A stretch of DNA of 64,000 bases from Candidatus Altimarinota bacterium. Its GTDB lineage: Bacteria > Patescibacteriota > Gracilibacteria > UBA1369. The notes under the pieces were generated by a model that ran no database searches, had not been told where the DNA came from, and saw only the letters and a list, made by a program, of their open reading frames with translations. Both the position numbers and the translations under genes were made by a program. Below are positions 21,145 through 44,479 of the stretch, in pieces; the stretch's first letter is position 1, and every line of letters starts with the position of its first letter. The DNA lies in the NCBI GenBank assembly GCA_963677745.1, contig OY782391.1, forward strand, positions 1,024,001 to 1,088,000, written 5' to 3'.

Positions 21145-22560
21145 TTGACCATGAAAATCACTTTTTGGGGAGCAGCTCGCGAAGTTACCGGATCCAGACA
21201 TCTTCTGGAAATTAACGGCAAAAAGATTCTTCTGGACTGCGGAATGTTCCAGGGACGTCGCAAGGATACCGAAGATAAAAACAAGAACTTTGGTTTTGAT
21301 CCGAAAGAACTGGACGCAGTAATACTTTCCCATGCGCATATCGACCACTCCGGCTGTCTGCCTCTGCTGGTCAAACAGGGTTACAAAGGACCTATTTACA
21401 GCACTTTTGCCACCCGCGATCTGTGTAACTTTATGCTGATGGATTCCGCCTTCATCCAGGAAAAGGACGCGGAATATATGAATAAAAAGCGCAAAAAAGG
21501 TGACAAGAAGGGTCCGATGATTACCCCCCTTTATGACTCGGATGATGCCCAACAGGCGCTCTGCCAGTTTTACGGCATCGGTTATGAAACAGCCTTTGTG
21601 GTCACGGACGGGGTGATCTGTTCATTCTACAACGCCGGACATATTCTGGGTTCCTCCCTGATCCATCTGTTGATCAAGGACAAGAAAACCAAAAAGACCT
21701 TTCGTTTCGCGTTTACCGGAGATCTTGGCCGAAAAAACCTGCCTATTCTTCGTGATCCGACCCCCATGCCTCCCACCGAATATCTGGTGACAGAATCCAC
21801 CTACGGCAACAGATTTCACGAATCAATGACCGATGCCAGCGCCGAACTCAAGGATATCGTCAATCGCGTGGCCAAACGCGGCGGAAAAATTATCGTACCG
21901 GCCTTTTCCGTCGAACGCACCCAGGAAATGATTTACCATTTGAACGTACTCTGGCAGAAAAAACAAATCCCCGATATTCCGATCTTTGTGGATAGTCCGC
22001 TGTCCGTCAATATCAGCGAAGTTTTCATCAACCATCCGGAATGTTATGACAAGGAGATTTATGAGGAATTTATCAGTAACCGCAAGAATCCCTTCGGTTT
22101 CGGAAGACTCCAGTACACGCACAGTGTGGAGGAATCCAAAGCCCTCAATAGTATCAACGGCCCGGCCATTATCATTTCTTCCTCGGGCATGTGTGAAAAC
22201 GGCCGCATTCTGCATCATCTCAAAAACAATATCGAAGACAGCCGCAATCTGGTTTTGATTGTCGGATACATGGCCAAAGATACTTTGGGCCGCCGCATTT
22301 ACGACAAGCAGCCGGTAGTGAAGATTTTCGACGAGGAATATCATCTGCGGGCGGAGGTACAGGTCATGAACGCTTTTTCAGGTCATGCCGACCGTTCCGA
22401 TCTGTTGGAATATATCACCAAAATCAAAGACCTCAAGCAAGTCTATCTGGTCCATGGTGAAGAATCCCAGAGTCTCAGTCTGCGCGATTACCTCAAGGAG
22501 CTGAAGATCAAAGCGGTGGATGTTCCGGAAAGGGGACAAAGTTATACAATGGAGGAGTAA
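21145..22560 (+). CDS. MBL-fold beta-CASP ribonuclease
   Basis: GAAREVTGS, SHAHIDHSG, AGHILGS, ESTYG, FSGHAD and LVHGE motifs. Confidence 0.95.
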   Translation: MTMKITFWGAAREVTGSRHLLEINGKKILLDCGMFQGRRKDTEDKNKNFGFDPKELDAVILSHAHIDHSGCLPLLVKQGYKGPIYSTFATRDLCNFMLMDSAFIQEKDAEYMNKKRKKGDKKGPMITPLYDSDDAQQALCQFYGIGYETAFVVTDGVICSFYNAGHILGSSLIHLLIKDKKTKKTFRFAFTGDLGRKNLPILRDPTPMPPTEYLVTESTYGNRFHESMTDASAELKDIVNRVAKRGGKIIVPAFSVERTQEMIYHLNVLWQKKQIPDIPIFVDSPLSVNISEVFINHPECYDKEIYEEFISNRKNPFGFGRLQYTHSVEESKALNSINGPAIIISSSGMCENGRILHHLKNNIEDSRNLVLIVGYMAKDTLGRRIYDKQPVVKIFDEEYHLRAEVQVMNAFSGHADRSDLLEYITKIKDLKQVYLVHGEESQSLSLRDYLKELKIKAVDVPERGQSYTMEE

Positions 22561-22664: not shown

Positions 22665-24101
22665 ATGAGTGAAATATATGTCATCGACGATCTGCATCCG
22701 GAGGATAATGCCATGCTGCAGGCTCTTTACAGCCGTTCCCCCAAGGGAGTGATGGAACATGTGGAAAAAGTGCGCAAAGCTGATTCCGGCAATTTCATGG
22801 AAAGGTTTTATGTCGGTTACGGACATCTTTCGATTGCCGACTGTGGTTCCACCACCATTTTTCTGGAACACGTCAGTATGTTTGTGGCCAAAGCTGTCCA
22901 GGACTGGGCGCTCTACAGCGGACAGGAAGCCAGCACCCGCTACATCGATTATTCCAGGCAGCTGATTTTGAATCCGGCCGGTACGGCCGAAGGCCAGCAG
23001 ATCCAGGACAACTGGATGAAGTTTTACAACGAGGCCAAAGAACCGTTGCAGGCTTATTTGAAACTGAAATATCCCCGCAAAGAGGAGGAAATCGAAGCGG
23101 TCTATGACAAAGCCATCGCCGCCCGCAGTTTTGACATCCTCCGCGGATTTCTGCCGGCGGGAGCCACCACCTATCTCTCCTGGCATACCAACCTTCGCCA
23201 GGCCCACGAGCATATCGCCCTGCTGGAACACCACCCGCTGGCGGAAATCCGCGAGCTGGCGGTGCGGCTGCGGGCGGCCCTCTCGGAAAAATACAAACAT
23301 TCTTTTTCCCACCCCAAATTCCCCGAGCAGGAGGATTACCGGGCCAAAACGGTCGGGCAATATTCCTATTTTTCACCTGAAAATCATCCGGATTTTGAGT
23401 TCAGCCATAATCTGCAGTACGAACAGTTGGAAGAATTTTCCGACCTGCTGAAAACCCGTCCCTTCAAGACCAACCTGCCTTCTTTTCTGAATATGTTCGG
23501 ACAATGCACTTTCAAATTCAAACTGGATTTCGGTTCCTTCCGCGACTTGCAGAGACACCGAAACGGAGTTTGTCTGATGCCCCTTTTGAGCGCCAAATTC
23601 GGATTTTATCCCTGGTATCTGGAGCAGTTGCCGGAGCAGTTGCGCGCGGCGGCCGCGACATTGCTGGCTGAACAGGAAAAGGCCATCCTCGCCCTGCCGG
23701 TGGATGAACTGACCCGCCAGTATTATTTCCCCATGGGCTATACCATTCCCGTCACCGTTAATTACCGTCTGCCGGCTTCGGTCTATGTGGCCGAGCTGCG
23801 CAGCAATAAAACCGTCCACCCGACGCTGCGCCGCCGCGCCCATCAGATGGGTCTGGCCCTGCAGGAAAAAGTGCCTAACCTCAAAATGTATCTGGACCTG
23901 GATCCCGACGATTGGGATGTCAGGCGCGGCACCCAGGACATCGTCCGCAAAGATGATGCTGTTACTCAGGACATAACTATTAATAACAATGAAAGAATTT
24001 TCGATAATAGTGGGATTGGATCAAAACATGGGGATCAGCAAGGACGGACGGATTCCCTGGTTCCTGCCGGAACATCTGAAAAACTTCAGCAGGGTAACTA
24101 A
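22665..24101 (+). CDS. thyX: FAD-dependent thymidylate synthase, long two-domain form
   Basis: FYVGYGHLSIAD, GQEASTRY and DFGSFRDLQRHR motifs. Confidence 0.88.
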   Translation: MSEIYVIDDLHPEDNAMLQALYSRSPKGVMEHVEKVRKADSGNFMERFYVGYGHLSIADCGSTTIFLEHVSMFVAKAVQDWALYSGQEASTRYIDYSRQLILNPAGTAEGQQIQDNWMKFYNEAKEPLQAYLKLKYPRKEEEIEAVYDKAIAARSFDILRGFLPAGATTYLSWHTNLRQAHEHIALLEHHPLAEIRELAVRLRAALSEKYKHSFSHPKFPEQEDYRAKTVGQYSYFSPENHPDFEFSHNLQYEQLEEFSDLLKTRPFKTNLPSFLNMFGQCTFKFKLDFGSFRDLQRHRNGVCLMPLLSAKFGFYPWYLEQLPEQLRAAAATLLAEQEKAILALPVDELTRQYYFPMGYTIPVTVNYRLPASVYVAELRSNKTVHPTLRRRAHQMGLALQEKVPNLKMYLDLDPDDWDVRRGTQDIVRKDDAVTQDITINNNERIFDNSGIGSKHGDQQGRTDSLVPAGTSEKLQQGN

Positions 24102-24603
24102 GGCCACCGAACAGTCCGGCCGGACCAACGCGGTCATCATGGGACGCCACACCTGGGAGAACCTGGCCAAAGGCCGGCCTTTTCCCGATTTGATCAACGT
24201 CGTAATCAGTTCCAATGAGGATTTGGATCTGCCCGATGGCGTTTTACAGTTTTTGTCTCTGGACGAGGCGCTGCTGGCCATTTCCACCAGCAAAAAAATC
24301 GACCAGTTGTTTGTGATCGGCGGAGCGCAATTATTTGCGGAAGCGGTTTTACATCCACAGCTGCAAAAAATTTACCTCACCAAAATCGAGGAGGATTATG
24401 ATTGTGATCTGTTTTTTCCGGAGAGGATTCCCGAAGAGTTCGAAATAATTTCCGCCACCGACACGCTGGAAAGCGACGGACTGGAATACGCCCATCTGGT
24501 ATTGGGCAAGGAAGCCGATTTGGGCAACCAGTACTTTCTCCCCGACCGGCTGGCGGATGATGCAACGGACACGGAAGCGGAGGAAGAGGTAAATCGGGAT
24601 TGA
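23989..24603 (+). CDS. folA: Dihydrofolate reductase with acidic tail
   Basis: GISKDGRIPW, NAVIMGRHTWE, FVIGGAQLF and CDLFFP motifs. Confidence 0.92.
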   Translation: MKEFSIIVGLDQNMGISKDGRIPWFLPEHLKNFSRVTKATEQSGRTNAVIMGRHTWENLAKGRPFPDLINVVISSNEDLDLPDGVLQFLSLDEALLAISTSKKIDQLFVIGGAQLFAEAVLHPQLQKIYLTKIEEDYDCDLFFPERIPEEFEIISATDTLESDGLEYAHLVLGKEADLGNQYFLPDRLADDATDTEAEEEVNRD

Positions 24604-24640: not shown

Positions 24641-25918
24641 TCAAATCTGGCTCAAAAATTTTCTCAGACTTTCCACCAGCTGGTAATCTTCCATTTTGTT
24701 GGCCAGTTCGATCATTTTCTGATAGTCCGAGCGGTGGGACTTCATTTCGGACAAAAGCTTCAGGCCGGCTACGCGCGCCTGGACTTTATTGTATTCCTTG
24801 GCATAGCAGGCTTTGACCATCTGACGGTTTCCCGCCCGGCTGAACAGCTCTCTGGCTCTGTCCAGCGAGCCGCTATTATATAGGGACAAAGCTTCCTGTT
24901 CATCGATATATTTTTTCAATTCATTATCACCTTTTTTGTCGGCGTAATAACGGGCGCTTTTAAACTGGTGATTGCTGACATTGTAAATAACGGCGTTATG
25001 AAAAATATCGGACAAAAATTTGGCATCAGCCTCCGTGTCCAGCCCGGATTTTTCCAGAAAAAAAGCGGCGTTTTCGAAATTATTGGTTTTTACGGCTTCC
25101 ACGGCCATATTGTGGTAAGCCGCTTTAAGATTCTTTTTTACCAGTTCGGTTTCGGAAGAAAGTGAGTTGGCCAAATGTGCCGCTTTGAGGAAGTCCCGCG
25201 CATCGATGTGGATTTGCTTGTCGCGGAAATCCGAAACATCCAGCAGATTGGTGGAAATCAGTTCCACTATCGGCAGGATTTTCAAATACTGGTCATATTT
25301 GGCGAATGAACCGCTGGTGGCTTCAATGTCGACGCCTTTAAAATGCAGGCAGACATGCTCCTTCATGATCTTGATCTGCAGATCTTCCAGTTTGAATTTC
25401 CGGGAATACAGAAAAGTATAAAAAGTCACAATCTGATTGCAGTCCCCGATCATCTTTTTCCCACCGTCCGGGTCGGCCAGCAGTTTACCGAAAGAGGCGC
25501 CCTCCAGATATTCAAATCTACCGGCACCGGGCCGCAAAAAAAGCATCATGGCCGTTATCAGCCGCAATTTCTCGTCATCGCCGGGCGCCCCCGGCACTTT
25601 CAGCCCCAAATTTCTCAGATTGTTGGCCACTGCTTTCAGATCAATCGGTGTTTTTTTCGAAAATTCCAGAAAAGTTTCCACTATTCTCTCGCTGTTTTTA
25701 TATAAACGTTTGCGGGTGGATTTGTTCAGATATTTATAGCCCTTGAACCTGGCCTCCAGCCACAGGTCCAGGATTACCAGATTGGACTGCATCAGCTCAA
25801 GAATCTTTCTCTGCGCCTCAAACACCCCCAGAAAAGCAATGTTCCTCAGGATCCGGTCAACGATCTTTTCCTGTTTGTCGGCATAGCGTGAAAAGGGATT
25901 CCAGACGGGTCTCAGCAT
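24641..25918 (-). CDS. Transglutaminase-like domain plus helical/TPR-like repeats
   Basis: GDCNQ...EHVCLH...DIEATSG. ATG at 25918 overlaps the stop of the upstream gene (TAATG). Confidence 0.65.
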   Translation of the reverse strand: MLRPVWNPFSRYADKQEKIVDRILRNIAFLGVFEAQRKILELMQSNLVILDLWLEARFKGYKYLNKSTRKRLYKNSERIVETFLEFSKKTPIDLKAVANNLRNLGLKVPGAPGDDEKLRLITAMMLFLRPGAGRFEYLEGASFGKLLADPDGGKKMIGDCNQIVTFYTFLYSRKFKLEDLQIKIMKEHVCLHFKGVDIEATSGSFAKYDQYLKILPIVELISTNLLDVSDFRDKQIHIDARDFLKAAHLANSLSSETELVKKNLKAAYHNMAVEAVKTNNFENAAFFLEKSGLDTEADAKFLSDIFHNAVIYNVSNHQFKSARYYADKKGDNELKKYIDEQEALSLYNSGSLDRARELFSRAGNRQMVKACYAKEYNKVQARVAGLKLLSEMKSHRSDYQKMIELANKMEDYQLVESLRKFLSQI

Positions 25919-26259
25919 TATTTCTTGGGGATGAAGGCTTGGAGTATGCCGTTGATGACAGATACGGCCAAACTGAACATCAAAGCCCACCAGAAATTAT
26001 CCACGGTGAAACCCGGAACAAACTGGGTGGCCAGCATCACCATCAGGGCATTGATTACAAAAGTCAGCAGTCCCAGGGTCAGGATATTGATGGGCAAAGT
26101 CAGAATCATCAAAACCGGTTTGATAATTGCATTGATTAGTCCCAAAACGATGGCAGCGACTAGAGCTGTGGTAAAATCCGGTACATGAATGCCGGGAAGC
26201 AGATAGGCCGTGAAATATATGGAAAGAGAAAACAGAATCCAGCCGGCAATAATCCTCAT
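25918..26259 (-). CDS. YvlD/DUF360 membrane protein (4-TM phage holin family)
   Basis: LGLINAIIKPVLMILTLPINILTLGLLTFVINA and GFTVDNFWWA motifs. Confidence 0.9.
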   Translation of the reverse strand: MRIIAGWILFSLSIYFTAYLLPGIHVPDFTTALVAAIVLGLINAIIKPVLMILTLPINILTLGLLTFVINALMVMLATQFVPGFTVDNFWWALMFSLAVSVINGILQAFIPKK

Positions 26260-26313: not shown

Positions 26314-27006
26314 TCAGATATTTCCGTCAATCCAAAATTCCATTTTCAGATAGGGACCGCTGGGTGTCAGACAGAGGCAGAATATTCCGGCCTGCCCGAG
26401 CAGGTTTTGCAAACAAGCCATCATTGACGGGAGATTTCTGACATAGCCGGTGGTTTTGATTTTATCGGCAGTGCGTTGCTTGAGTCTCAGTCGGGTCCGT
26501 TTAGTCATTATACTGCGGGTGATGGCCAGAAAATAGGTTTGGGCCAAATTTTCGTCATCTATATCGGGAGGCACATTCACCTTGAATTCTGTGGTCGCAA
26601 CCGATTCAATCCTTTTTTCCGAATTGGAGTCGTATTCATACCAGGGTTTTCCGATGTTGGCATTTTCTTCGATCAGATTGTTAATGCCCAGTACCAGCGT
26701 ACGGTAATCCAGTCTGGCCGTGGACAGATCTGTCGGCTGCCCGGCCTCTTCTGCAGTCCTTGATGATTCTTTCTCCGCTCCGTCGAGCAGTTCAAAAAAA
26801 ACTTCCTCGTTTTTCGTAATCAGTTTTAAAGAGATACCGTCCAGGTAACATAGCTCTTCCCGAAAATTCAACTTCAACCGGTATTTTTGGCCGTTTTTGC
26901 TGTTTAAGACCCACAATTCTTTGGAAGGATCATTCTTCAACAGGGGGGTCAGAGTCAAGCCGTTGATTCCTTTGGAGGCGCTCCCTCCCATCCGATCCAG
27001 GCTCAT
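26314..27006 (-). CDS. Hypothetical protein
   Basis: Long ORF, probable ATG at 27006 (MSLDRM); divergent from the ncRNA candidates. Confidence 0.65.
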   Translation of the reverse strand: MSLDRMGGSASKGINGLTLTPLLKNDPSKELWVLNSKNGQKYRLKLNFREELCYLDGISLKLITKNEEVFFELLDGAEKESSRTAEEAGQPTDLSTARLDYRTLVLGINNLIEENANIGKPWYEYDSNSEKRIESVATTEFKVNVPPDIDDENLAQTYFLAITRSIMTKRTRLRLKQRTADKIKTTGYVRNLPSMMACLQNLLGQAGIFCLCLTPSGPYLKMEFWIDGNI

Positions 27007-27085
27007 GATGAACGTTAAAAATATTACTGAAAATACTATAACCCGAAAGTACAAAACAATTCAAGAAGGTGTACACAGCAGTAAT

Positions 27086-27113
27086 TTGCCTAAAAGAAAA
27101 TATTTGATAAGAT
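27086..27113 (+). promoter_or_regulatory. Sigma70-like promoter for RNA candidate 1
   Basis: TTGCCT-16 nt-TAAGAT, just before the first stem. Confidence 0.5.
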
Positions 27114-27117
27114 ACTT

Positions 27118-27510
27118 TGAAGCTTGGATTTAGGAAAAACAAAAACAAAACATACCTCCTACCAATTTGCTTCACCCGCCCCGCATTATGCCGGGCAACC
27201 CGACGGAGCTAGAAACCGTCGCGACAGAGGGAAGCCTCCAAAACAAAAATGCTCCTTAAAAAATAATTTACCCGAGTCAGAAGAAGTCATAAAAACTTCT
27301 GCCAACATCTCTTCCGACGCCAAACTTAAAAGATTGTATCTTTGCAGGGTTCCATGGAACACTCTCGGACAATCATCAATAGTTCACAGGGAAGAAAGTT
27401 TACGGCAACAAGTTAAAGAAAGCTTCCAACACTCATCCCGGTAAATTATTCCAGGGCAAACAGACACCTCATGGAACCCGACATCTAAAGTCGGGGTATT
27501 TCCATGTTTT
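27118..27510 (+). ncRNA. Candidate large structured ncRNA 1 (~390 nt), family unknown
   Basis: Many complementary segments, including the 11-bp AATAATTTACC/GGTAAATTATT; A-rich loops; terminal hairpin followed by TTTT. Confidence 0.55.
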
Positions 27511-27578
27511 GACAAGAAGTCAAAAATCTTACAAAGTATATTTCACAACCATGACAGAGGGCTGTCCAGACTCGTTTC

Positions 27579-27606
27579 TTGATTAATAAATTCTATCAGT
27601 TATAAT
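27579..27606 (+). promoter_or_regulatory. Sigma70-like promoter for RNA candidate 2
   Basis: TTGATT-16 nt-TATAAT. Confidence 0.7.
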
Positions 27607-27611
27607 GTTAT

Positions 27612-28072
27612 GATTTTTCCAATAAAGAAAAATCGAAACCAAAGATCTTTCACAAAAAGAATTAGACCTATCGCCCCCCGGGGGCGGTAACGTGAAGATT
27701 GATGAGGCGTCAAAGCGGTTGCCTTTAAAACAAAAATAAAAAGGAAAAACAACGCCCTAGAACGTTTTGGCATCTCTCAATCTTTGCTGGGCGCTGGATA
27801 CTTGTCTCCGACCGGATTAGTATCCGTTCAAAGTTACTCGGTGGGGTACTTTAGCCTTTATGGCTTCTACCTTCACTACCGGCCTTTACTGGTTGGCGGG
27901 TGGTCCGTGGCAGGACTGGAAAAAACAGCCAAAGCCTAGGCATAGATTAGGACTGGTCAATCCACAAATCTCGAAAACAAAAACAAAATTGCTAGAGTTC
28001 TCACCAATATTTTATTTTTGAGGACCCATTAGCACAAGAGATTTGGAACCCCTACTTCGGTAGGGGTTTTTT
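27612..28072 (+). ncRNA. Candidate large structured ncRNA 2 (~460 nt), family unknown
   Basis: Lies between a promoter and a terminator, contains no ORF of 60 aa or more, and has dense nested stems with G.U pairs polarised to the plus strand. Confidence 0.7.
28047..28072 (+). terminator. Intrinsic terminator with cUUCGg loop
   Basis: AACCCCTAC-TTCG-GTAGGGG-TTTTTT; U-tract on the plus strand only. Confidence 0.85.
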
Positions 28073-28570
28073 AATGTAGGAAGTTGACTGGGTTATATGC
28101 AGATCTGTGTTTATTACCTCCGATATCGCCTTATCCAGGTATATCTCGCCCACCGCTTCCGGATATTTCTGACCGGGGACGTCTTTGTAATAGGCGGGTC
28201 TGGTCCATTTTTTAATTTTAGCTTTAAAATCTGCAATATCCAACACGCCCCGATTGTCGCTGCACATCAGCATCACAATAATCCAGCGGCGATATTCAAA
28301 AATGATCCGTTGGGGATCATCGATCGGCAGTTTTTCATATTCCCTGGAGCGGTCCGCCAGATAATTTAGGAGGTTCATCATGTAGGAATAGGCCTCCCTG
28401 GTGGGCTCCATATACAGGACTCGCAGGGGGTTTTTGAGATCTTTGCTGGAATCGGCAACATATGTAAATAAATGGTCATTACAGATGTCTTTGGGAGGCA
28501 GGGAAGCTTTTATTACTGGAAGATCAGCCACTTTTGGGTTTTGCTCATATCCGGACACTGGCAATTTCAT
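28052..28570 (-). CDS. Hypothetical protein
   Basis: 172-aa ORF with an upstream minus-strand TTGACA-17-TACCCT promoter; its stop codon lies inside the plus-strand terminator. Confidence 0.7.
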   Translation of the reverse strand: MKLPVSGYEQNPKVADLPVIKASLPPKDICNDHLFTYVADSSKDLKNPLRVLYMEPTREAYSYMMNLLNYLADRSREYEKLPIDDPQRIIFEYRRWIIVMLMCSDNRGVLDIADFKAKIKKWTRPAYYKDVPGQKYPEAVGEIYLDKAISEVINTDLHITQSTSYIKKPLPK

Positions 28571-28698
28571 ACAAATAATTTAAAAATTTTGCATCAAAAG
28601 GGTAAACACGGACGGACAAGATGTCAATACTTGCCAGCAAGTCAAATTAATTGACAATTTAAAAAAGTTTGATTTGATATACGCAGCTTAAAAATCTT

Positions 28699-30549
28699 AT
28701 GCTCGACCTGCCAAAAGACAATCCCAGGGAACTGCCCAGTGCCGAATTTGCTCCGGAAATTGAGCGTGAGGCCCAAATGGCAGTTTTGAGAAGTCAGCAG
28801 ATTGATGAGCGAATTCCGGTTCAGGGGTTTACGCTTGACGCCATGGAATCCAAAGATTTGGATGATGCCATTTGGCTTGAGCGGTCCAACGGAGAATGGA
28901 GAGTGTTGGTCACTATCAGCGACGTGGACGCCCTTGTTCCAATGGGCTCTCTGCTCGATCGCGAGGCTGTTACAAGGGTAACCAGTCATTATTTTCCTGA
29001 GAGAAGCAGGGACGGTAAGGTAGAGCCAAAATATGTTATCCCAATGCTTCCCACCATTCTTTCGGAAAAGCACCTTAGCCTTCAGGAAGGGGAGTCCCGT
29101 CTAACACTGACGGTTGAAATGCTTCTGACGGGAGATTTCCGGCCGATTTCGGCAGACATAAAACGTACCCGTCTTGTTTCCGCCAAAAAGCTGGGACTGA
29201 GCGAATATGGCGATCGTAAAATTATTGGAGATCCCGGCCTGCCTCTGCGGGATTATTATCATATGGCCAAGGGGTTAAACCACAAACGCTGGTCCGACCC
29301 CGGTTGGGCCTACCAGGAATTAAAGAACGGAATCAGCACCAATGAAGACGGTATGGTGAGGGAAGGAAGCCTGTCTGCTGCCAGTCTGATCGTACAGGAA
29401 TTCATGGTCTTGACCAATCAGGCCGTGGCAGAACTACTCAACAGAGAAAATTTAGCGGCTCCCTTTCGAAATCATTTGCCTGCCAGAAACTCTCCCCCGA
29501 CCAAAGCACAGATCAGGGCGGAAATTGAAAGAAACAGCGATTATCGCAAGCTGGTTGATGATTTACGGGCAACTTATCAGAAACTTTTGGGAAGCGCTTT
29601 GTACGAAGCTGCTCCGGCCGGTCATTTCGGCCTGGGGATACCTGCCTATACGCATTTTACTTCTCCCATCCGCCGCTATGCCGACCTGGTCATTCATCGT
29701 ATTGTAAAAGCCCACTTATCCGGAGCAAAGTCTCCTTATACTCCGGAAGAAATTCAGCAGCTTTGTCTTTATCTGAATAAGCGCAACCGTGACCTGGCCA
29801 CGATCAGGGCTCATCAGGAAAGAAGACATTCATTAAAAAACTACCGCCAATTCGGGCACCTGCTGCCCAAGGAAAAAGAAGACGGGCCGGATTATATGGA
29901 AAGCTTACTGACATATTTAAGAGACAATCGCATTGGCAATGCGTTCTTTGAGTACTCCTGCAGCGAAGGGTTCCTTATTCAACTTTCCTGCAAGGCCAGT
30001 GTGCGCTTTCAACGCATCAGACACGTGGTGGAAGTCACGGCCAGAGCTGCCTTACAGGACGTGAAAAACGAGGCTGCCCGTTTGTTACTGGAGAAAATCC
30101 AGGAATTGATGGAGGCAAACCCGCCGGAACAAAAGAAAAAAGATTTGAAGTATCAAAAATCGCCGGAATCTCCCGAAACCGGACCGGGTGTGGTTGCACG
30201 CCTCTATCAATACTGCGAAGAGCATGGTTTTCCGGTTCCCAGTATTTATTATGAATCCTGGAATGGCGGTCTCTTTTATAACAAAGAAACAGGGGAATAT
30301 TCGGTTGCCCGGGAACCGGGATGTGAAAAACCTCCGGATGGAGAAGAAATGGATCAAAATCTGGTTCCCATAGTTTGTCATTGCGATATCAGCGCATCTC
30401 TGACTATGGATGGATTTGGACGAAACCGCCAGACTGCCAAGGAAGAAGCCGCCAGGAAAATGCTGGACTATTTGCAGTCGGGCCAGCCCATTCCCAGGCA
30501 GTCTATTGTTCCACCGGCTCCTCCTTCCCGGCCGAAAAAAAACGATTAA
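28699..30549 (+). CDS. RNB-domain (RNase II/R family) exoribonuclease with two C-terminal dsRBD-like domains
   Basis: DAMESKDLDDA, QEFMVLTN and HFGLG..YTHFTSPIRRYADL motifs; C-terminal ..VKNEAARLLL and GFGRNRQTAKEEAARKML. Confidence 0.88.
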   Translation: MLDLPKDNPRELPSAEFAPEIEREAQMAVLRSQQIDERIPVQGFTLDAMESKDLDDAIWLERSNGEWRVLVTISDVDALVPMGSLLDREAVTRVTSHYFPERSRDGKVEPKYVIPMLPTILSEKHLSLQEGESRLTLTVEMLLTGDFRPISADIKRTRLVSAKKLGLSEYGDRKIIGDPGLPLRDYYHMAKGLNHKRWSDPGWAYQELKNGISTNEDGMVREGSLSAASLIVQEFMVLTNQAVAELLNRENLAAPFRNHLPARNSPPTKAQIRAEIERNSDYRKLVDDLRATYQKLLGSALYEAAPAGHFGLGIPAYTHFTSPIRRYADLVIHRIVKAHLSGAKSPYTPEEIQQLCLYLNKRNRDLATIRAHQERRHSLKNYRQFGHLLPKEKEDGPDYMESLLTYLRDNRIGNAFFEYSCSEGFLIQLSCKASVRFQRIRHVVEVTARAALQDVKNEAARLLLEKIQELMEANPPEQKKKDLKYQKSPESPETGPGVVARLYQYCEEHGFPVPSIYYESWNGGLFYNKETGEYSVAREPGCEKPPDGEEMDQNLVPIVCHCDISASLTMDGFGRNRQTAKEEAARKMLDYLQSGQPIPRQSIVPPAPPSRPKKND

Positions 30550-39046: not shown

Positions 39047-39868
39047 CTATTCTCTTTTTCTCATTAATAAATAAACCATCTCCGCCACTTCGGCTCTGGT
39101 CACTTGGGTTGCCGGGTAAATCAGCGTGGCGTCACTGTCGATAATCTGCTCGTTCAAACCTGCCTGAACGTATTTCACATACCACTGGTTCAGTTCGATG
39201 TCGGAAATCCCAGCCAATTGTTGCAGTTCCGCTGCACTGACGGTGAGGTCGCTTTTGAATCCGCGTGTGGTAATTTTCAGTGTTTCCACAACGTTGGCGG
39301 GTTTTTCGGCGCGGAACAAACCGTCCGGATAGCCGTGTACGATATCGGCATTCTTGGCGGCTTTAACATGCCTGGCCGACCAGCTTCTGGTATTGGTGTC
39401 AGGGAAAGCTTTCGGTTCGGGAGAGACTGGTACGGGTGCATCTACCGCTCTGACCACCATCGTGGTTACTTCGGCGCGTGTTGCGGCGGCATTCGGATCA
39501 AAATAACAGGGTCTTCTGCCCCCGGCTATTCCTTTATCATAAAGATAATTGATCGCCTCAGCCGACCGGTTGCCTGCAATATCCCTGAAACGGCAATTGT
39601 TGGCCTGGCTGATTAATCCTCCCGGTTCAACCTGGGCATTACCGGAATCCGAGGCACCGCTACCACCTGAACCGCCGCCCTGGATTTCGGTCAGGTAACT
39701 CCCGCTCGACGCCTCTCTCAGGAACGGTAACTTCATGGAGTTAATGGGACGCTCAGCGCCGCTATCCTGTGCGAAAACTCCGACAGGAATCATTACTCCG
39801 ATCAGTACCCCTCCCCAGAAAGCAGATCGGGCCAGAGCGCCTTTTGAAAAAAAGCTTTCTCTAGACAT
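39047..39868 (-). CDS. SLH domain protein
   Basis: Signal peptide; FRDI..., ATRAE, GYPDGLFR and VTRAEVA motifs. Confidence 0.88.
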   Translation of the reverse strand: MSRESFFSKGALARSAFWGGVLIGVMIPVGVFAQDSGAERPINSMKLPFLREASSGSYLTEIQGGGSGGSGASDSGNAQVEPGGLISQANNCRFRDIAGNRSAEAINYLYDKGIAGGRRPCYFDPNAAATRAEVTTMVVRAVDAPVPVSPEPKAFPDTNTRSWSARHVKAAKNADIVHGYPDGLFRAEKPANVVETLKITTRGFKSDLTVSAAELQQLAGISDIELNQWYVKYVQAGLNEQIIDSDATLIYPATQVTRAEVAEMVYLLMRKRE

Positions 39869-39931
39869 ATTTGGGAAATAAGGTATAAAAACGGGCTCAA
39901 TATAGCACCATTATTTCCCGATGCCAATTTT

Positions 39932-42900
39932 TTACTTCAGGGATATGTATTTTCTCAGATCATAAATCCTGACCAGAATTGTGGCGGTTTCTGCACGAGT
40001 GATAGGATCAGAAGGGCGGAAATAATCCAGACCGTCACGACCTTTGGAGCCTAGTATCAGATTATTTTCCCTGCCTGCCGACACGTATTCGAAAAACCAG
40101 TCCGCCGGAACCACATCGTGAAAATATGATTTGGCCTGATATCCCTGTTTTTTAAGTTTCTGGATATTAACCAGTATCTTGATGGCCTCGGCTCTGCTGA
40201 TGGATTTCTCAGGATAAAAATTCCCGTCCGGATAGCCGGAAACGATGCCTTTTTTAGTCGCACTGTAGACATAATTCTTGTACCAGTTGTCCGAATTCAA
40301 CGGGACGTCACCATAAGGTTGGATTTGTGCTGACTGACCGGAAAATTCTTCAATTCCCAGACAATTGGCGACCAGAGCCATTTTAAGAAATTCCGCTCTG
40401 TTGATATTCCGGTCGGGCTGAAAAGAATAACTTCCGTCACTGCCTTCATAACCGCTGATTACAAATGTTTGATTTTTGGTCTGCGCCAGAAGTTTGATTA
40501 TATCGGCGGCCTGATGGTTGGAGACATCATTGAACTCATGCAAAGGGGGTGTCTGTGAAAGACAGGAAAGAGAGGGGGGAGTGGTGTCTTCCTGTTCGGG
40601 CGTTGTCAGAAATTGCATGGCGGGAGGCAGGTTGACCGGTGCGAAACCACCGGACGAAGCGCCGCCTGCTACGGGTAAGGAAGGTCCCGCCCCGCCTCCG
40701 CCGACGGGCGCAGCAGACCCTGAAACTACAATATTACCGCTCAAGCCGGTTTTAGCTGCGGCATCGGTGGCAGATAATTTTATAATTTCGGCATTGAGAT
40801 CATAGACAAATATGGAGGCAATTCCGCCAACCAGATTGTAAACATTATTTTGACTGGTGAATCCGGGAGAATCAAAGAAATAAGCATGACCATTACTTTT
40901 TGCCGTGAAAGAACCGGCCATTTTTACCAGATTTCCATACAGATCATTGGAAGTTACTATTTCGGTCCAGCCCACTGCGGTAGTCTGGGGTGTGGTATTG
41001 GTGATTTCATAATGGTCCAAAGGAGCAACGTTTACGATTAAAGGAAGTCCGCCGTTGGGAGTTCCGCCATGCGGCTGGGAGGTGACAGTCTGATCCGTGG
41101 CATGAACAGTGGAGGTTTCTTCCTTGTAGGCCACCAGAGTGGAGGCTGACAGATCGGAGCTTCCGGCCGTAAAATTGACCAGCACCGGATTGCCGAAGGT
41201 GACCGCCTCCACGACCGGATTGTAAATACCAATCGGACTGAGACCGGAGAAGGTAAGATATTTTGAGCCTTCATATCCGCTGACTACATTGCCCTGCAGA
41301 TCATAAGCGGTCACCGTCAGTTCGTTGGTGGTACCGGCAGACATAGCCGGCAAACCGGTGATCACAAAGTAAGAGGTACAATAAGAGAGTTGTCCCAGTG
41401 ACGAACCGGAAGCCACCAGTGAGGCCGAGCCGGCGGTGGAAGCCGTTGAGTTAACCTTGGTTACGGCGGTGACGTCATTTACTTTATTGCCGGGAATGGT
41501 GCGTACAACCGCTGCTGTGACATCATTAACTGTAAGACAGCTGGGATCAAAGATATTACCGGATGCATCCGTCTTGACCACCCAGATATCGCTTTGTTTC
41601 AAACCCGGTGGAATCGGATGCCTGGAGCGGCCGGCAAAGATCATACCTCCGTCCAGAGTGGACTTCATATCATAGAACAGGTTGTTGATATTGTCCCCGA
41701 TAGCTTTGGCCAGATTAACAGTACCCAGAGCGGGGCCGGGACCGGCGTCAATTTGAAGATAAAAGCCGTCATTGTCTCCTATGCCCAAACCTTCGGTATT
41801 ACCTGCCAAATAATAGGAACTTCCGCCGTTCATGACCGTAAAAAACTCATCCGGAAAGGAAGTTGAATCTCCATAATTGAAAATCCAGTCCAGATTGCCG
41901 TTGGCATCGATTTGCATCAAGAGAGCTTCTTCATAGGCACCGGCATTGGCCACCAGATTGCGACCCGCCAGAATATATTTTCCGAGGGCTGTGGAACCGG
42001 TGATACTGTTAAAAATTGAAGACGCTGAAGTGCCCGGACCTTTGATCGGGTCATTGACCAGAATATCATAAGTGTTACTCCAAATCAGGGCACCGGCACT
42101 GTCGATTTTAAAAATCCAGCCCACATATTCGTTGTTGGGGGCAGGCGCAAATGAGTAAGTCCATCCGGCTACAATGAAGGAACCATCAGGGTTCTCATAA
42201 AGGGCATTGACCATTTCCTGGTCAGCGCCGCCGTATCGGTTTTCCCAGACGATATTACCGGAAGCATCAAGTCTCACCAGCCAGGCTTCCGACACGGGAG
42301 CCAATAAGGGGTCAATACTGGCCTGACCGATCAGCATGAGGCCTCCATCAGCCAGAATATGCATTTTCGACACCACTTCGGACGGTCCACCCAGATCAAA
42401 AGATTTTTGCCAAAGTATATTTCCGTTGCCATCCAATTTCATGGCCAGAAAATCATTGGTTCCCGAAGCGTCGGTGGCTCCGCCGACAAAAATTGATCCA
42501 TCGGAGGCTACTTTCAGGCTGTTTAGAGTGACGGAAAAAGAATCTCCATAGGAGGTTTCCCAGATCACCGTACCGTCCTGATCCAGTTTCATCACCGAAA
42601 GATTGGAAGGAATATACCCGCCTACGATAAAATTGCCGTCCGCCGCTACAGCCACAGCATTGGCTGCGTCATGTCCGCTGGAATCAAACAGTTTGCTCCA
42701 GGTTTTGAGATAGCCGGTTACGTTCAAAGCCAGACAATGGCTGGGTTCGCCAGCAATCGGGTTGCAATTGTATTTCCCGTCGGTCAGTGAAAGAGTCGCC
42801 GATTCTACTATTTGGGGGGTCAGAGTGGCCACCAGTGGGTCGGATACTCCGGCAGTGAAGTTTATCGTTTGAGGTGTGCCGATTATTGTCCCTTCCACAG

Positions 42901-44479
42901 CCGGGAATTTGATTCCATTATTGGACAGACCGGAAAAAGTAATTGTTTTTGGTCCGTTGTAGTTGGTGCGAACGCTTCCCGCCGTATCATAGGCGGTAAT
43001 AGTCAACTCATTGTTGGCGCCGGCCATGGTTGAGGCGGCCCCGGTAATTTCCAGATAACTTGTGCAATACGAAGATGTCTGCAAATAATTTAACGTCACG
43101 CTTACTCTGGTCAATGAAGCGTTATTGACGGTCAGTCCCGGATCCCCTTCATTTTTTACCGTTAATATCGCCACCAGTCCGGCATTTGTATCGATAGCGG
43201 AAGTCACGGTGGAAGTTATACAATCAGGATCATCCAAATCACCGCTATCATCAACTTTGCCGATCCAGATGTCGGATTTACCGGTCAGGGGAGTGGAAAT
43301 TCCACCTGAAAGGACAAACCCGTTGTCATTGGTGGGGGAAATGGCGTTGATATGTTCACCATTGGCGTCTCCCAGAGCTTTTTGGGCCAGTATCGCACCG
43401 TTTGCATCCAATCTCAAAAACCAGCCGTCCATGGAACCGGCTCCATAAGAAACAGTCAATCCGCCTACCACATATTCGCTGCCGGTATCCTCGAGTACAT
43501 CGTTAAAAGACTCATTCACGCCTCCTCCATACATTTTCTGCCAGATTATTCCTCCGGTTGGGTTGATTTTTACGGCCAGTCCTTTGTAGGGACTGGGATT
43601 GGGCGACGCAGTGTACCCCACAGCCAGATAATTACCGTCGGTTGTGGTTATTATTTTATCCAAAGTGTCGACATCCGTACCCCCGATTACCCGGGACCAG
43701 GTATTGGCGGTTATATCATATTTGCCGTCCTCGCCGACTCTGATTATCCAGGCATCGCCGTTTCCGGATCCGTAAGAGGTGGTATGTCCGGAAGCCACAT
43801 AGCCGTGGTCCGCTGTTTCACGGACGGATTTTAAAACATCATAATTCACGTCACCAAATTCCTGCTGCCAGAGGACGTTGCCGTTGGAATCAAGTTTAAT
43901 CATCACTGCATCAGCGCTGCCAAAAGCACCGGTCTCGGTAAAGCCTACCAGCACAAAATTATGATCATAAGTTTCAATAATGGAATAGCCGATATCTTCT
44001 TTTGCTCCGCCGATCACTTTTTGCCAGACGATGTTGGCAGAACTGTCTAGTTTGGAAACCAAAATATCATTATTTCCTGACGCATCCGTTCCCCCGACCA
44101 GTATTATGCCTCCATCGGAAGTCTCCTTGAACTCCCTGGCATAATCATTTTGTTTCCCGGCATAACCCAGAGAGTATTGCCAGACCGGTTTGCCTTCACC
44201 ATCGATTTTTTGCAGTAAAATGTTGTCGAAATAATTTCCTGCCAGCGGATCATGCCCCTGACCGACTGAATTGGTGACAGACATCACTAAAAAATTTCCG
44301 TCGGCCAGCTGTTTGGTGCTGAATGATTCGTCATTATTGGAAACTCCGGTCACATCGTTATAACCGATGAAACTCTCCAGCCAGGTAGCGGCTTGTGCTA
44401 TGGGTGCAGCAAGTGCCATATAAATTCCCAGGGAAATCATAAATAAGAATTTCCCAACCGACATTTTGGATAAAAGCAT
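39932..44479 (-). CDS. Large surface protein: two beta-propeller-like repeat blocks, Ig-like domains and C-terminal SLH domains
   Basis: Repeated KLD.xG.xxWQ..GG...D...T.DG.Y.V.G units; GYPDGNFYPEKSISRAE and FRPSDPITRAE motifs. Confidence 0.85.
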   Translation of the reverse strand: MLLSKMSVGKFLFMISLGIYMALAAPIAQAATWLESFIGYNDVTGVSNNDESFSTKQLADGNFLVMSVTNSVGQGHDPLAGNYFDNILLQKIDGEGKPVWQYSLGYAGKQNDYAREFKETSDGGIILVGGTDASGNNDILVSKLDSSANIVWQKVIGGAKEDIGYSIIETYDHNFVLVGFTETGAFGSADAVMIKLDSNGNVLWQQEFGDVNYDVLKSVRETADHGYVASGHTTSYGSGNGDAWIIRVGEDGKYDITANTWSRVIGGTDVDTLDKIITTTDGNYLAVGYTASPNPSPYKGLAVKINPTGGIIWQKMYGGGVNESFNDVLEDTGSEYVVGGLTVSYGAGSMDGWFLRLDANGAILAQKALGDANGEHINAISPTNDNGFVLSGGISTPLTGKSDIWIGKVDDSGDLDDPDCITSTVTSAIDTNAGLVAILTVKNEGDPGLTVNNASLTRVSVTLNYLQTSSYCTSYLEITGAASTMAGANNELTITAYDTAGSVRTNYNGPKTITFSGLSNNGIKFPAVEGTIIGTPQTINFTAGVSDPLVATLTPQIVESATLSLTDGKYNCNPIAGEPSHCLALNVTGYLKTWSKLFDSSGHDAANAVAVAADGNFIVGGYIPSNLSVMKLDQDGTVIWETSYGDSFSVTLNSLKVASDGSIFVGGATDASGTNDFLAMKLDGNGNILWQKSFDLGGPSEVVSKMHILADGGLMLIGQASIDPLLAPVSEAWLVRLDASGNIVWENRYGGADQEMVNALYENPDGSFIVAGWTYSFAPAPNNEYVGWIFKIDSAGALIWSNTYDILVNDPIKGPGTSASSIFNSITGSTALGKYILAGRNLVANAGAYEEALLMQIDANGNLDWIFNYGDSTSFPDEFFTVMNGGSSYYLAGNTEGLGIGDNDGFYLQIDAGPGPALGTVNLAKAIGDNINNLFYDMKSTLDGGMIFAGRSRHPIPPGLKQSDIWVVKTDASGNIFDPSCLTVNDVTAAVVRTIPGNKVNDVTAVTKVNSTASTAGSASLVASGSSLGQLSYCTSYFVITGLPAMSAGTTNELTVTAYDLQGNVVSGYEGSKYLTFSGLSPIGIYNPVVEAVTFGNPVLVNFTAGSSDLSASTLVAYKEETSTVHATDQTVTSQPHGGTPNGGLPLIVNVAPLDHYEITNTTPQTTAVGWTEIVTSNDLYGNLVKMAGSFTAKSNGHAYFFDSPGFTSQNNVYNLVGGIASIFVYDLNAEIIKLSATDAAAKTGLSGNIVVSGSAAPVGGGGAGPSLPVAGGASSGGFAPVNLPPAMQFLTTPEQEDTTPPSLSCLSQTPPLHEFNDVSNHQAADIIKLLAQTKNQTFVISGYEGSDGSYSFQPDRNINRAEFLKMALVANCLGIEEFSGQSAQIQPYGDVPLNSDNWYKNYVYSATKKGIVSGYPDGNFYPEKSISRAEAIKILVNIQKLKKQGYQAKSYFHDVVPADWFFEYVSAGRENNLILGSKGRDGLDYFRPSDPITRAETATILVRIYDLRKYISLK

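Follow-up and report, generated by a model that had tools for sequence, protein, structure and literature searches.

Two putative large structured RNA genes of an uncatalogued family, apparently in a two-piece form, in a bacterium of the Candidate Phyla Radiation

Does a gap of about 1 kb, bounded by two orphan open reading frames (ORFs) and followed by a gene for an RNB-family nuclease, hold genes of its own, and do they form a system with their neighbours? The gap lies in a 64,000-nt stretch of the genome of a Candidatus Altimarinota bacterium (contig OY782391.1, positions 1,024,001 to 1,088,000, forward strand). This stretch, hereafter the window, corresponds to C1:1024001-1088000 of the source genome, a single contig of 1.34 Mb (G000; genomes, loci and families are cited by handles beginning with G, L and f). 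The initial annotation gave the gene order as an orphan on the − strand, the gap, a second orphan on the − strand and the RNB nuclease gene on the + strand, which is correct (Table 1). It also placed two large structured RNAs on the + strand of the gap, a claim borne out by folding, promoters, terminators and covariation. That the gap holds two genuine non-coding RNA genes of an uncatalogued family, here called RNA1 and RNA2, appears to us highly probable. As an explanation of the locus as a whole we favour, with reserve, RNA genes of a new family that are present in a two-piece form and act by mimicry of messenger RNA (mRNA) leaders.

Both halves of the gap fold better than shuffled sequences (z = −3.94 and −4.77; in each case none of 100 shuffles was equal). 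A blastn search with the gap gave matches in 21 of 41 genomes, the source genome included, and the whole gap is colinear in six genomes from its own genus and four other genera. The core of RNA2 is about 73–87% identical at the DNA level, compared with 24–32% protein identity for the flanking orphan. A σ70-type promoter and an intrinsic terminator on the same strand, both kept in relatives, are found as expected of independent non-coding RNA genes. The RNA2 promoter (27579-27606) scored 10 out of 12 in a promoter scan and is conserved across genera. The RNA1 promoter, conserved in seven of seven aligned genomes, has the same layout: a box, the −35 and −10 elements, then TGAA at the 5′ end. A genome-wide count of this layout is circular, the pattern having been derived from the RNA1 and RNA2 promoters themselves. 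Automatic promoter picking was wrong in part of the 37 loci and was used only for the recurring layout and for rough lengths. Downstream of RNA2, a same-strand terminator is present in 21 of 21 homologues, with compensatory changes in six of its nine stem pairs. The terminator-like hairpin of RNA1 is weaker than a canonical terminator and was not listed by the terminator scan. RNA libraries from two studies contain a 227-nt contig on 27804-28020 and a 167-nt contig on 27810-27965, both inside the RNA2 core. These are a weak hint of RNA2 transcription, DNA contamination of such libraries being possible; stretches without cover in the RNA runs are uninformative, and the DNA runs X6 and X7 yielded only fragments from relatives.

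Two further conserved elements were seen around the promoters. A GTCYA/GTACA box is conserved about 9–13 nt upstream of the −35 element; by eye, the GTCYA form was read at about 10–13 nt in many homologous loci. It might bind a regulator or serve as an upstream promoter element. High conservation also marks the spacer that separates RNA1 from the RNA2 promoter (27513-27560): the loop of its inverted repeat varies and CAAAGTATATTT is nearly invariant.

Neither RNA corresponds to a catalogued family. Rfam 15 (4227 models) returned only two tRNAs from the whole window. A search of 26900-28750 at E ≤ 10 gave four chance-level matches, the best at 23.1 bits against a cut-off of 47.5, and no Rfam family was matched in 13 homologous loci. 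Transfer-messenger RNA (tmRNA; C1:701797-702237, 105.7 bits), RNase P RNA (C1:405247-405740, 170.5 bits) and a 6S-like RNA (C1:602254-602414, 41.1 bits, below the 46.4 cut-off) are all located elsewhere in the genome and were rejected as identities for the gap. A survey of the literature, which covered parts of PMC4736985 and of two 2026 bioRxiv preprints, gave no description of the gap RNA.

RNA2 is a member of a family of RNAs of 400–600 nt. RNAalifold applied to eight genomes of eight genera predicted 102 pairs, four of which were spurious A-U pairs with the U tract and were removed. In this MAFFT-based alignment the remaining 98 pairs over the whole RNA2 are 98.5% paired, with 23 of them compensatory, compared with 37–47% paired in slid controls; the G001 copy, with an N-run in its 5′ part (L003 ~1475-1595), was used only partly. 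A covariance model of the RNA2 3′ domain (R1, 150 positions) separated 21 true copies (42–168 bits) from chance matches (at most 21.5 bits). The alignment of these 21 copies made by the model has 95.7% of its cells paired, with compensatory changes at 22 of the 30 pairs. With 37 copies the values are 94.1% and 28 of 30, a level reached by none of 500 shuffles and compared with 22–46% paired in slid controls. Such model-made alignments are fitted to the structure and thus favour it; the slid controls and the MAFFT-based count agree with them. They replaced RNAalifold on a plain MAFFT alignment of the 21 3′ domains, in which distant copies were misaligned and most helices lost. Because certain G-U pairs are invariant (37 of 37 at one position), RNA2 is assigned to the + strand.

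The predicted fold of RNA2-type RNAs begins with a long helix whose apex varies and continues with a middle domain of several helices. An H-type pseudoknot and a hairpin with the loop GGUCA follow, and a closing helix displays the invariant, single-stranded AAAACAAAAACAAAA. The pseudoknot is suggested by the UGGC:GCCA pairing, which by eye is possible in all 37 copies, with C-G in 33 and U-A in four (L060, L076, L086 and L093). A script tally gave 32 C-G, four U-A and one C-C; the C-C is an artefact at L082, where the pattern caught an earlier CCCA. We read this covariation as a predicted H-type pseudoknot.

When 185,579 species genomes were scanned with a pattern built on the best-conserved hairpin, 41 loci matched. 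Twenty of these carry other RNA2 motifs and are labelled Candidatus Peregrinibacteria, Peribacteria, Gracilibacteria, Patescibacteria group or Altimarinota, one being labelled only "bacterium"; the remaining 21 are scattered chance matches in unrelated phyla. Using R1, RNA2-type RNA was detected in 44 of 151 genomes of the same order, the source genome included: 21 of 22 in family f1, 13 of 13 in f9, 7 of 21 in f17, and the single genomes of f14 and f16 (1/1 each). A broader model, R2, found the RNA in 9 of 151 genomes of a class-wide sample, again with the source genome included (f17 5/5, f9 2/2, f19 1/1), and in none of the other orders sampled, a result that depends on model sensitivity. 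There are one or two copies per genome, and many genomes have two. By these searches, the family is an uncatalogued large structured RNA found only in one order of Peregrinibacteria/Peribacteria, tiny bacteria of groundwater within the Candidate Phyla Radiation (CPR). A phage origin was rejected: viral contigs gave one GC-rich chance match to the pattern, which scored nothing with R2.

The second copies are a paralogous "type B" at another locus; they share the layout and have a box similar to GTCCATTACA ahead of the −35 element. They were seen in G013, G016, G019, G020, G021, G022, G083, G121, G146, G157 and other genomes (loci L080-L083, L085, L087, L089, L091 and L092).

How RNA1 relates to this family is less direct. 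RNA1 is single-copy in its own genome, has no Rfam match, is colinear in six genomes (G001, G002, G003, G014, G017 and G024) and occurs further in G004 and L036. Its core of three nested helices, from which covariance model R3 was built, has 90.1% of cells paired in 12 sequences, with 14 of 18 pairs compensatory and 36–63% in slid controls. R3 found the core in 9 of 36 family genomes, representing 6 of 25 genera, and in the loci examined RNA1 lies just upstream of RNA2. In a second RNA1 hairpin, which carries CUAGAA, the stem varies among G000, G001, G014 and L036 and the loop is kept, as read from the alignments by eye. Plain homology of RNA1 to RNA2 was rejected: neither nhmmer nor R1 gave any cross-match except the A-rich tract.

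A cross-search with covariance models had been proposed in the initial annotation as a way to relate the two RNAs. R1 did not recover RNA1; R3 links RNA1, weakly, to the one-piece RNAs. Inside the single RNA2-type RNA of three genomes, R3 matched at 29.5 bits (G018), 26.6 bits (G010) and 22.9 bits (G023), these being the three weakest of the 12 RNA1-core sequences. The match is placed alike in all three, where the long helix has its apex, immediately 5′ of the invariant ACGCCCUAGAAC. These genera have no separate RNA1, and RNA1-bearing genera have a short apex. Because the core is internal in one-piece genera, the apex is short where RNA1 is present and the promoters share a layout, we consider it fairly probable that RNA1 is a duplicated RNA gene that kept the apical domain, and that RNA2 lost that domain, giving a two-piece form. 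RNA1 would then be a clade-specific companion, and the two RNAs probably work together. The earlier idea that the RNAs are related or co-functioning gains support from the weak core match in the three sister genera and from the shared promoter layout. The arrangement is reminiscent of two-piece tmRNA, in that a domain internal in relatives is a separate transcript with its own promoter, adjoining the rest of the RNA. It differs in that tandem duplication and reduction, not circular permutation, are apparent here, and assembly in trans is only proposed.

Short motifs are shared by the two RNAs. The coordinates first given for them are exact: AAAACAAAAACAAAA at 27136-50 and 27974-88, AAAACAAAAAT at 27240-50 and 27727-37, CTAGAA at 27209-14 and 27757-62, and TGGAACCC at 27472-79 and 28044-51. 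The 15-mer AAAACAAAAAYAAAA occurs three times in the window against 0.00 expected (none of 100 shuffles), and has four sites in the 1.34-Mb genome, three of which are within the gap. The proposal that both RNAs present single-stranded A-rich tracts holds up: the tracts are conserved, and the consensus structures leave them unpaired. They were also read by eye in distant homologues. CTAGAA is too short to exceed chance by count, yet it is conserved across genera, in the RNA1 hairpin loop and as CCCUAGAAC in RNA2. TGGAACCC drops out as a shared motif: its four matches compare with 3.39 expected, and it is not conserved in other genera.

What might these tracts do? The source organism appears hardly to use Shine-Dalgarno (SD) sites. 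SD-like words are present in positions −20 to −1 of 5.2% of 941 crudely called starts, compared with 9.7% further upstream, and positions −15 to −1 of gene starts contain 8–13% G and 27–44% A. Several genes have AAACAAAAAC directly before ATG (examples are C1:16889, 378558, 381436 and 56964), and the fourth genomic copy of the 15-mer sits in such a leader, that is, in a 5′ untranslated region (UTR). In base composition and motif, the invariant AAAACAAAAAYAAAA tracts seem to resemble the organism's own SD-less mRNA leaders. A protein with four S1 domains is encoded in the genome at C1:1321298-1322305. In the mechanism we propose, G-free A/C-rich tracts would be held unpaired on a rigid scaffold, like idealised copies of the cell's leaders, and would serve as a decoy or platform for an initiation factor, such as the 30S subunit or the four-S1-domain protein, or for some other protein that binds single-stranded RNA. 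Such a leader-mimic decoy or scaffold is a tentative suggestion, and an architectural or ribonucleoprotein (RNP)-scaffold role unrelated to translation is about as likely. More speculative still is the extended version, in which an order-specific RNA mimics leaders, binds 30S/S1 and sets global translation capacity, having been split in one clade where the pieces reassemble or cooperate.

CrcZ and CsrB act as decoys or platforms for RNA-binding proteins in other bacteria. Like CrcZ/CrcY of Pseudomonas and the CsrB/RsmZ sponges, the gap RNAs are stand-alone structured RNAs of several hundred nucleotides with their own promoter and terminator. They also share with CrcZ and CsrB several copies of one single-stranded motif, here the AAACAAAAA-type tracts. 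The concentration of genomic AAAACAAAAAYAAAA sites in the gap (three of four), in tracts that are conserved and unpaired, is what would be expected of a sponge. In contrast to CrcZ and CsrB, the gap RNA is far more structured, with a pseudoknot, a helix of about 24–26 bp and a multi-helix core. It has no homology to CrcZ (RF01675, 10.2 bits against a cut-off of 95), and no Hfq was found in the genome.

Table 1. Features of the locus (window coordinates)
Feature	Position	Strand	Description
Orphan ORF	26314-27054	−	246 aa; hydrophobic N terminus
Gap without conserved ORF	27055-28051		~1 kb, non-coding
RNA1 promoter	27071-27113	+	GTACA box 27071-75; −35 TTTGCC 27085-90; 17-nt spacer; −10 TAAGAT 27108-13
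RNA1	~27118-27510	+	~390 nt; ends placed from promoter and terminator
A-rich tract AAAACAAAAACAAAA	27136-27150	+	Predicted hairpin loop near RNA1 5′ end
RNA1 hairpin GACGG/CCGUC	27202-27220	+	Conserved loop motif CUAGAA at 27209-14
RNA1 core, three nested helices	27300-27402	+	P1 27310-15/27390-95; P2 27332-36/27370-74; P3 27346-52/27357-63
RNA1 terminator-like hairpin ACCCGAC/GUCGGG	27476-27512	+	Covarying stem, then broken U tract
Spacer and RNA2 promoter	27513-27606	+	Inverted repeat TTTGAC-N5-GTCAAA, then CAAAGTATATTT
RNA2 promoter elements	27564-27606	+	GTCCA box 27564-68; −35 TTGATT 27579-84; −10 TATAAT 27601-06
RNA2	~27611-28072	+	~460 nt; ends placed from promoter and terminator
Long helix, ~24-26 bp	27692-27717/27763-27787	+	Variable apex: A-rich loop 27727-41, invariant ACAACGCCCUAGAAC 27750-64
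Hairpin GGUCC-GUGGCA-GGACU and putative pseudoknot	27902-27931	+	Loop UGGC 27908-11 with downstream GCCA 27928-31
Hairpin with conserved loop (U/A)GGUCA	27950-27963	+	4/4 pairs compensatory
Helix CAAAUCUC/GAGAUUUG	27965-28045	+	Encloses invariant single-stranded AAAACAAAAACAAAA 27974-88 and hairpin 27991-28033
RNA2 intrinsic terminator	28047-28072	+	9-bp stem, UUCG loop, U6; overlaps last codons of ORF 28052-28570
Orphan ORF	28052-28570	−	172 aa
Nuclease ORF	28699-30549	+	RNase II/R-family exonuclease

The nuclease downstream of the gap had been described as an RNB protein with two double-stranded RNA-binding domains (dsRBDs). Its RNB domain (PF00773, 192.3 bits, residues 44-341) and one C-terminal dsRBD (PF00035, 26.2 bits against a cut-off of 23 when the tail was scanned alone) were recovered; the second dsRBD was unsupported by Pfam or by a PDB sequence search. 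No CSD or S1 domain was detected in the Pfam scan. The best NCBIfam models are those of RNase R and the VacB/RNase II family, at 176.7 against an equivalog cut-off of 597.85. The protein is thus like RNase R and RNase II in its RNB catalytic domain and differs from them in having one C-terminal dsRBD, no detected CSD or S1 domain and scores below the equivalog cut-offs. It is the only RNB gene in the source genome. Matches were found in 6 of 40 relatives, strong in G001, G002, G004 and G014 and weak in G027 and G031; the RNA model gave no match in the last two. Five RNA-bearing genomes were searched for the Pfam RNB domain, and it was found in none of them: G003, G017 and G024 have RNA1 and RNA2, G023 has the one-piece RNA, and G020, a complete genome, has two copies.

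The orphan ORFs are likewise restricted in distribution. ORF 26314-27054 has no Pfam or NCBIfam family and is found, at 24–32% identity, only in near genera (L002, L003, L004 and L006). ORF 28052-28570 has no Pfam family, a best NCBIfam score at chance level (15.5 bits against a cut-off of 249) and tblastn matches in its own genus only (L001-L003 and L035, the G002 record). A ValRS gene, convergent with RNA2, directly adjoins the RNA2 terminator in G024 and G003. Judged by these distributions, it is lineage-specific synteny that places the nuclease and the two orphans beside the RNA element; they are not components of it.

Other genes near the locus were noted. Many other genera have, convergent with the RNA2-type gene, a gene ending in SLH domains (L034, L040, L041, L051, L055, L062, L075, L077-L079, L084 and L088); the window itself has SLH genes at 39047-44479, about 11 kb downstream. 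About 4.5 kb upstream of the locus, at 21145-22560, lies a gene for a β-CASP/RMMBL metallo-β-lactamase ribonuclease (RNase J/CPSF-like), which is syntenic in L039, L066 and L052. A small membrane protein of the PF04020 "phage holin 4_2" family (25918-26259, 119.7 bits) keeps its place by the locus in near genera; it is probably nothing more than an ordinary membrane protein. At 22665-24603, a thyX-like ORF of 478 aa, with the Thy1 domain in residues 18-208 only, overlaps the start of a DHFR ORF (23989-24603) by 113 nt.

Our explanation, RNA genes of a new family in a two-piece form that mimic leaders, has several points to its disadvantage. The RNA-library evidence consists of two short contigs that are silent on strand, ends and abundance. 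R1 had no match in the other 14 of the 19 families of the order; the RNA family may be narrower than the order, or the covariance models too closely fitted to one clade. The proposed homology of the RNA1 core to the internal domain comes with weak scores (E values of 9e-4 to 0.03 over 303 kb, with a rough calibration), and motif order differs, CUAGAA preceding the core in RNA1, unlike in the one-piece RNA. No conserved base pairing between RNA1 and RNA2 was seen; RNAduplex on the full-length RNAs is uninformative here, as it pairs the entire molecules without regard to their internal folds. The 30S or S1 partner is suggested by the leader resemblance only, and the A-rich tracts could instead be tertiary-contact or spacer elements. 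Hfq (PF17209) had no match at E ≤ 1 in the genome, which leaves the CrcZ analogy without its usual partner.

Among the rival explanations, the one that we regard as possible, though doubtful, is that the RNAs are architectural or self-assembling large RNAs or a dedicated RNP scaffold, like OLE, ROOL and GOLLD, and are unrelated to the initiation of translation. On this view the A-rich tracts, CCCUAGAAC and the GGUCA loop would make tertiary or quaternary contacts or be bound by a protein specific to the lineage. Large ornate RNAs rely on A-minor contacts, and the gap RNAs, at 400–600 nt, with numerous helices, a pseudoknot and loops that stay invariant next to stems that covary, are near-universal in f1 (21/22) and f9 (13/13), have paralogous type B copies and occur where no Hfq was found. 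Their size class, heavy covariation, lineage restriction and lack of a constant adjacent partner gene also recall OLE, ROOL and GOLLD; they differ from these in their CPR host and in having no phage association. Arguing the other way, no Rfam match to OLE, ROOL, GOLLD or other families was obtained, and no protein neighbour is constant, ValRS or RNB giving way to SLH-domain genes. The exact 15-mer, moreover, is invariant and present in a 5′ UTR, which is unexpected for purely structural adenosines. The RNA-centred system of the initial annotation, with the RNB-dsRBD exonuclease processing or partnering the RNAs and the orphans taking part, for example in a defence or decoy module, is very unlikely, being largely refuted by independent occurrence of RNAs and proteins. 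The nuclease gene does lie just downstream of RNA2 wherever this can be judged (G000, G001, G002, L036 and G004, in the last at 1.8 kb). The G014 contig ends about 850 nt past RNA2, so that adjacency is possible there too, and a protein with a dsRBD would suit an RNA2 with a helix of about 24–26 bp. These adjacencies, however, come from one small clade without an independent replicate. No RNB domain was found in the RNA-bearing genomes G003, G017, G024, G023 and G020, and ORF 28052-28570 is limited to one genus. The nuclease has matches in 6 of 40 relatives, whereas 44 of the order's 151 genomes have RNA2. As the sole RNase II/R homologue in the genome, the nuclease is more likely a general exonuclease; viral contigs, for their part, gave one chance match only.

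Two further rivals concern the nature of the gap itself, and both have a very low probability in our estimate. In one, the gap would belong to a flanking gene, as its long UTR or cis-regulatory region, or would encode small proteins; the short ORFs 27124-27444, 27784-27939 and 27860-28021 might speak for it. The largest of these, 27124-27444, matches the G002 record only, as two overlapping pieces, and the conserved core holds 1-nt, non-triplet indels in the alignment of relatives. With gap ORFs not conserved and core indels non-triplet, the gap was rejected as protein-coding. Helix covariation and the RNA's own promoter and terminator also run counter to this rival, as do the flanking genes, which are divergent (ORF 26314-27054) or convergent (ORF 28052-28570; ValRS in G024 and G003) and differ among genera while the RNA is constant. 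The other takes RNA2 as a diverged housekeeping RNA missed by Rfam, the candidate being signal recognition particle (SRP) RNA. RNA2 is near-universal in two families, and SRP RNA models RF00169 and RF01854 had no match in the complete source genome even at E ≤ 10 (RF00169 in none of 41 order-sample genomes). The string GGUCC...GGAAAAAACAGCCAAAG may superficially resemble SRP domain IV. The genome, on the other hand, seems to offer no SRP protein for such an RNA to bind: the Ffh M domain (PF02978) and the SRP54-type GTPase (PF00448) gave no matches, and no DT[AS]GR motif was found in open frames of at least 150 aa. No SRP family was matched in the region at E ≤ 10, and tmRNA, RNase P RNA and the 6S-like RNA lie elsewhere. 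With no SRP RNA model match and Ffh/FtsY not found, SRP RNA identity was rejected.

It follows as a separate observation that no SRP pathway is detectable in the complete source genome by searches with RF00169/RF01854, PF02978, PF00448 and DT[AS]GR. This absence is probably already known, because two SRP subunits are stated in PMC8080830 to be absent in many CPR bacteria.

The adjacency once read as an RNA-plus-nuclease system is corrected here to lineage-specific synteny, and what the locus offers instead is a large RNA family whose covariation is very strong. It has a supported pseudoknot, paralogous copies and what seems to be a split-gene variant, and it is confined to Peribacteria-type genomes and not in Rfam. 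CPR bacteria account for much of bacterial diversity, and to our knowledge almost nothing is known of their non-coding RNAs. The leader-like invariant tracts would tie this family to translation control in cells that lack SD sites and SRP. The family is a ready target for cryo-electron microscopy and for partner pull-downs. If the proposed reading is true, CPR bacteria would have a ribosome-directed regulatory RNA of a new class, together with a natural two-piece large RNA.

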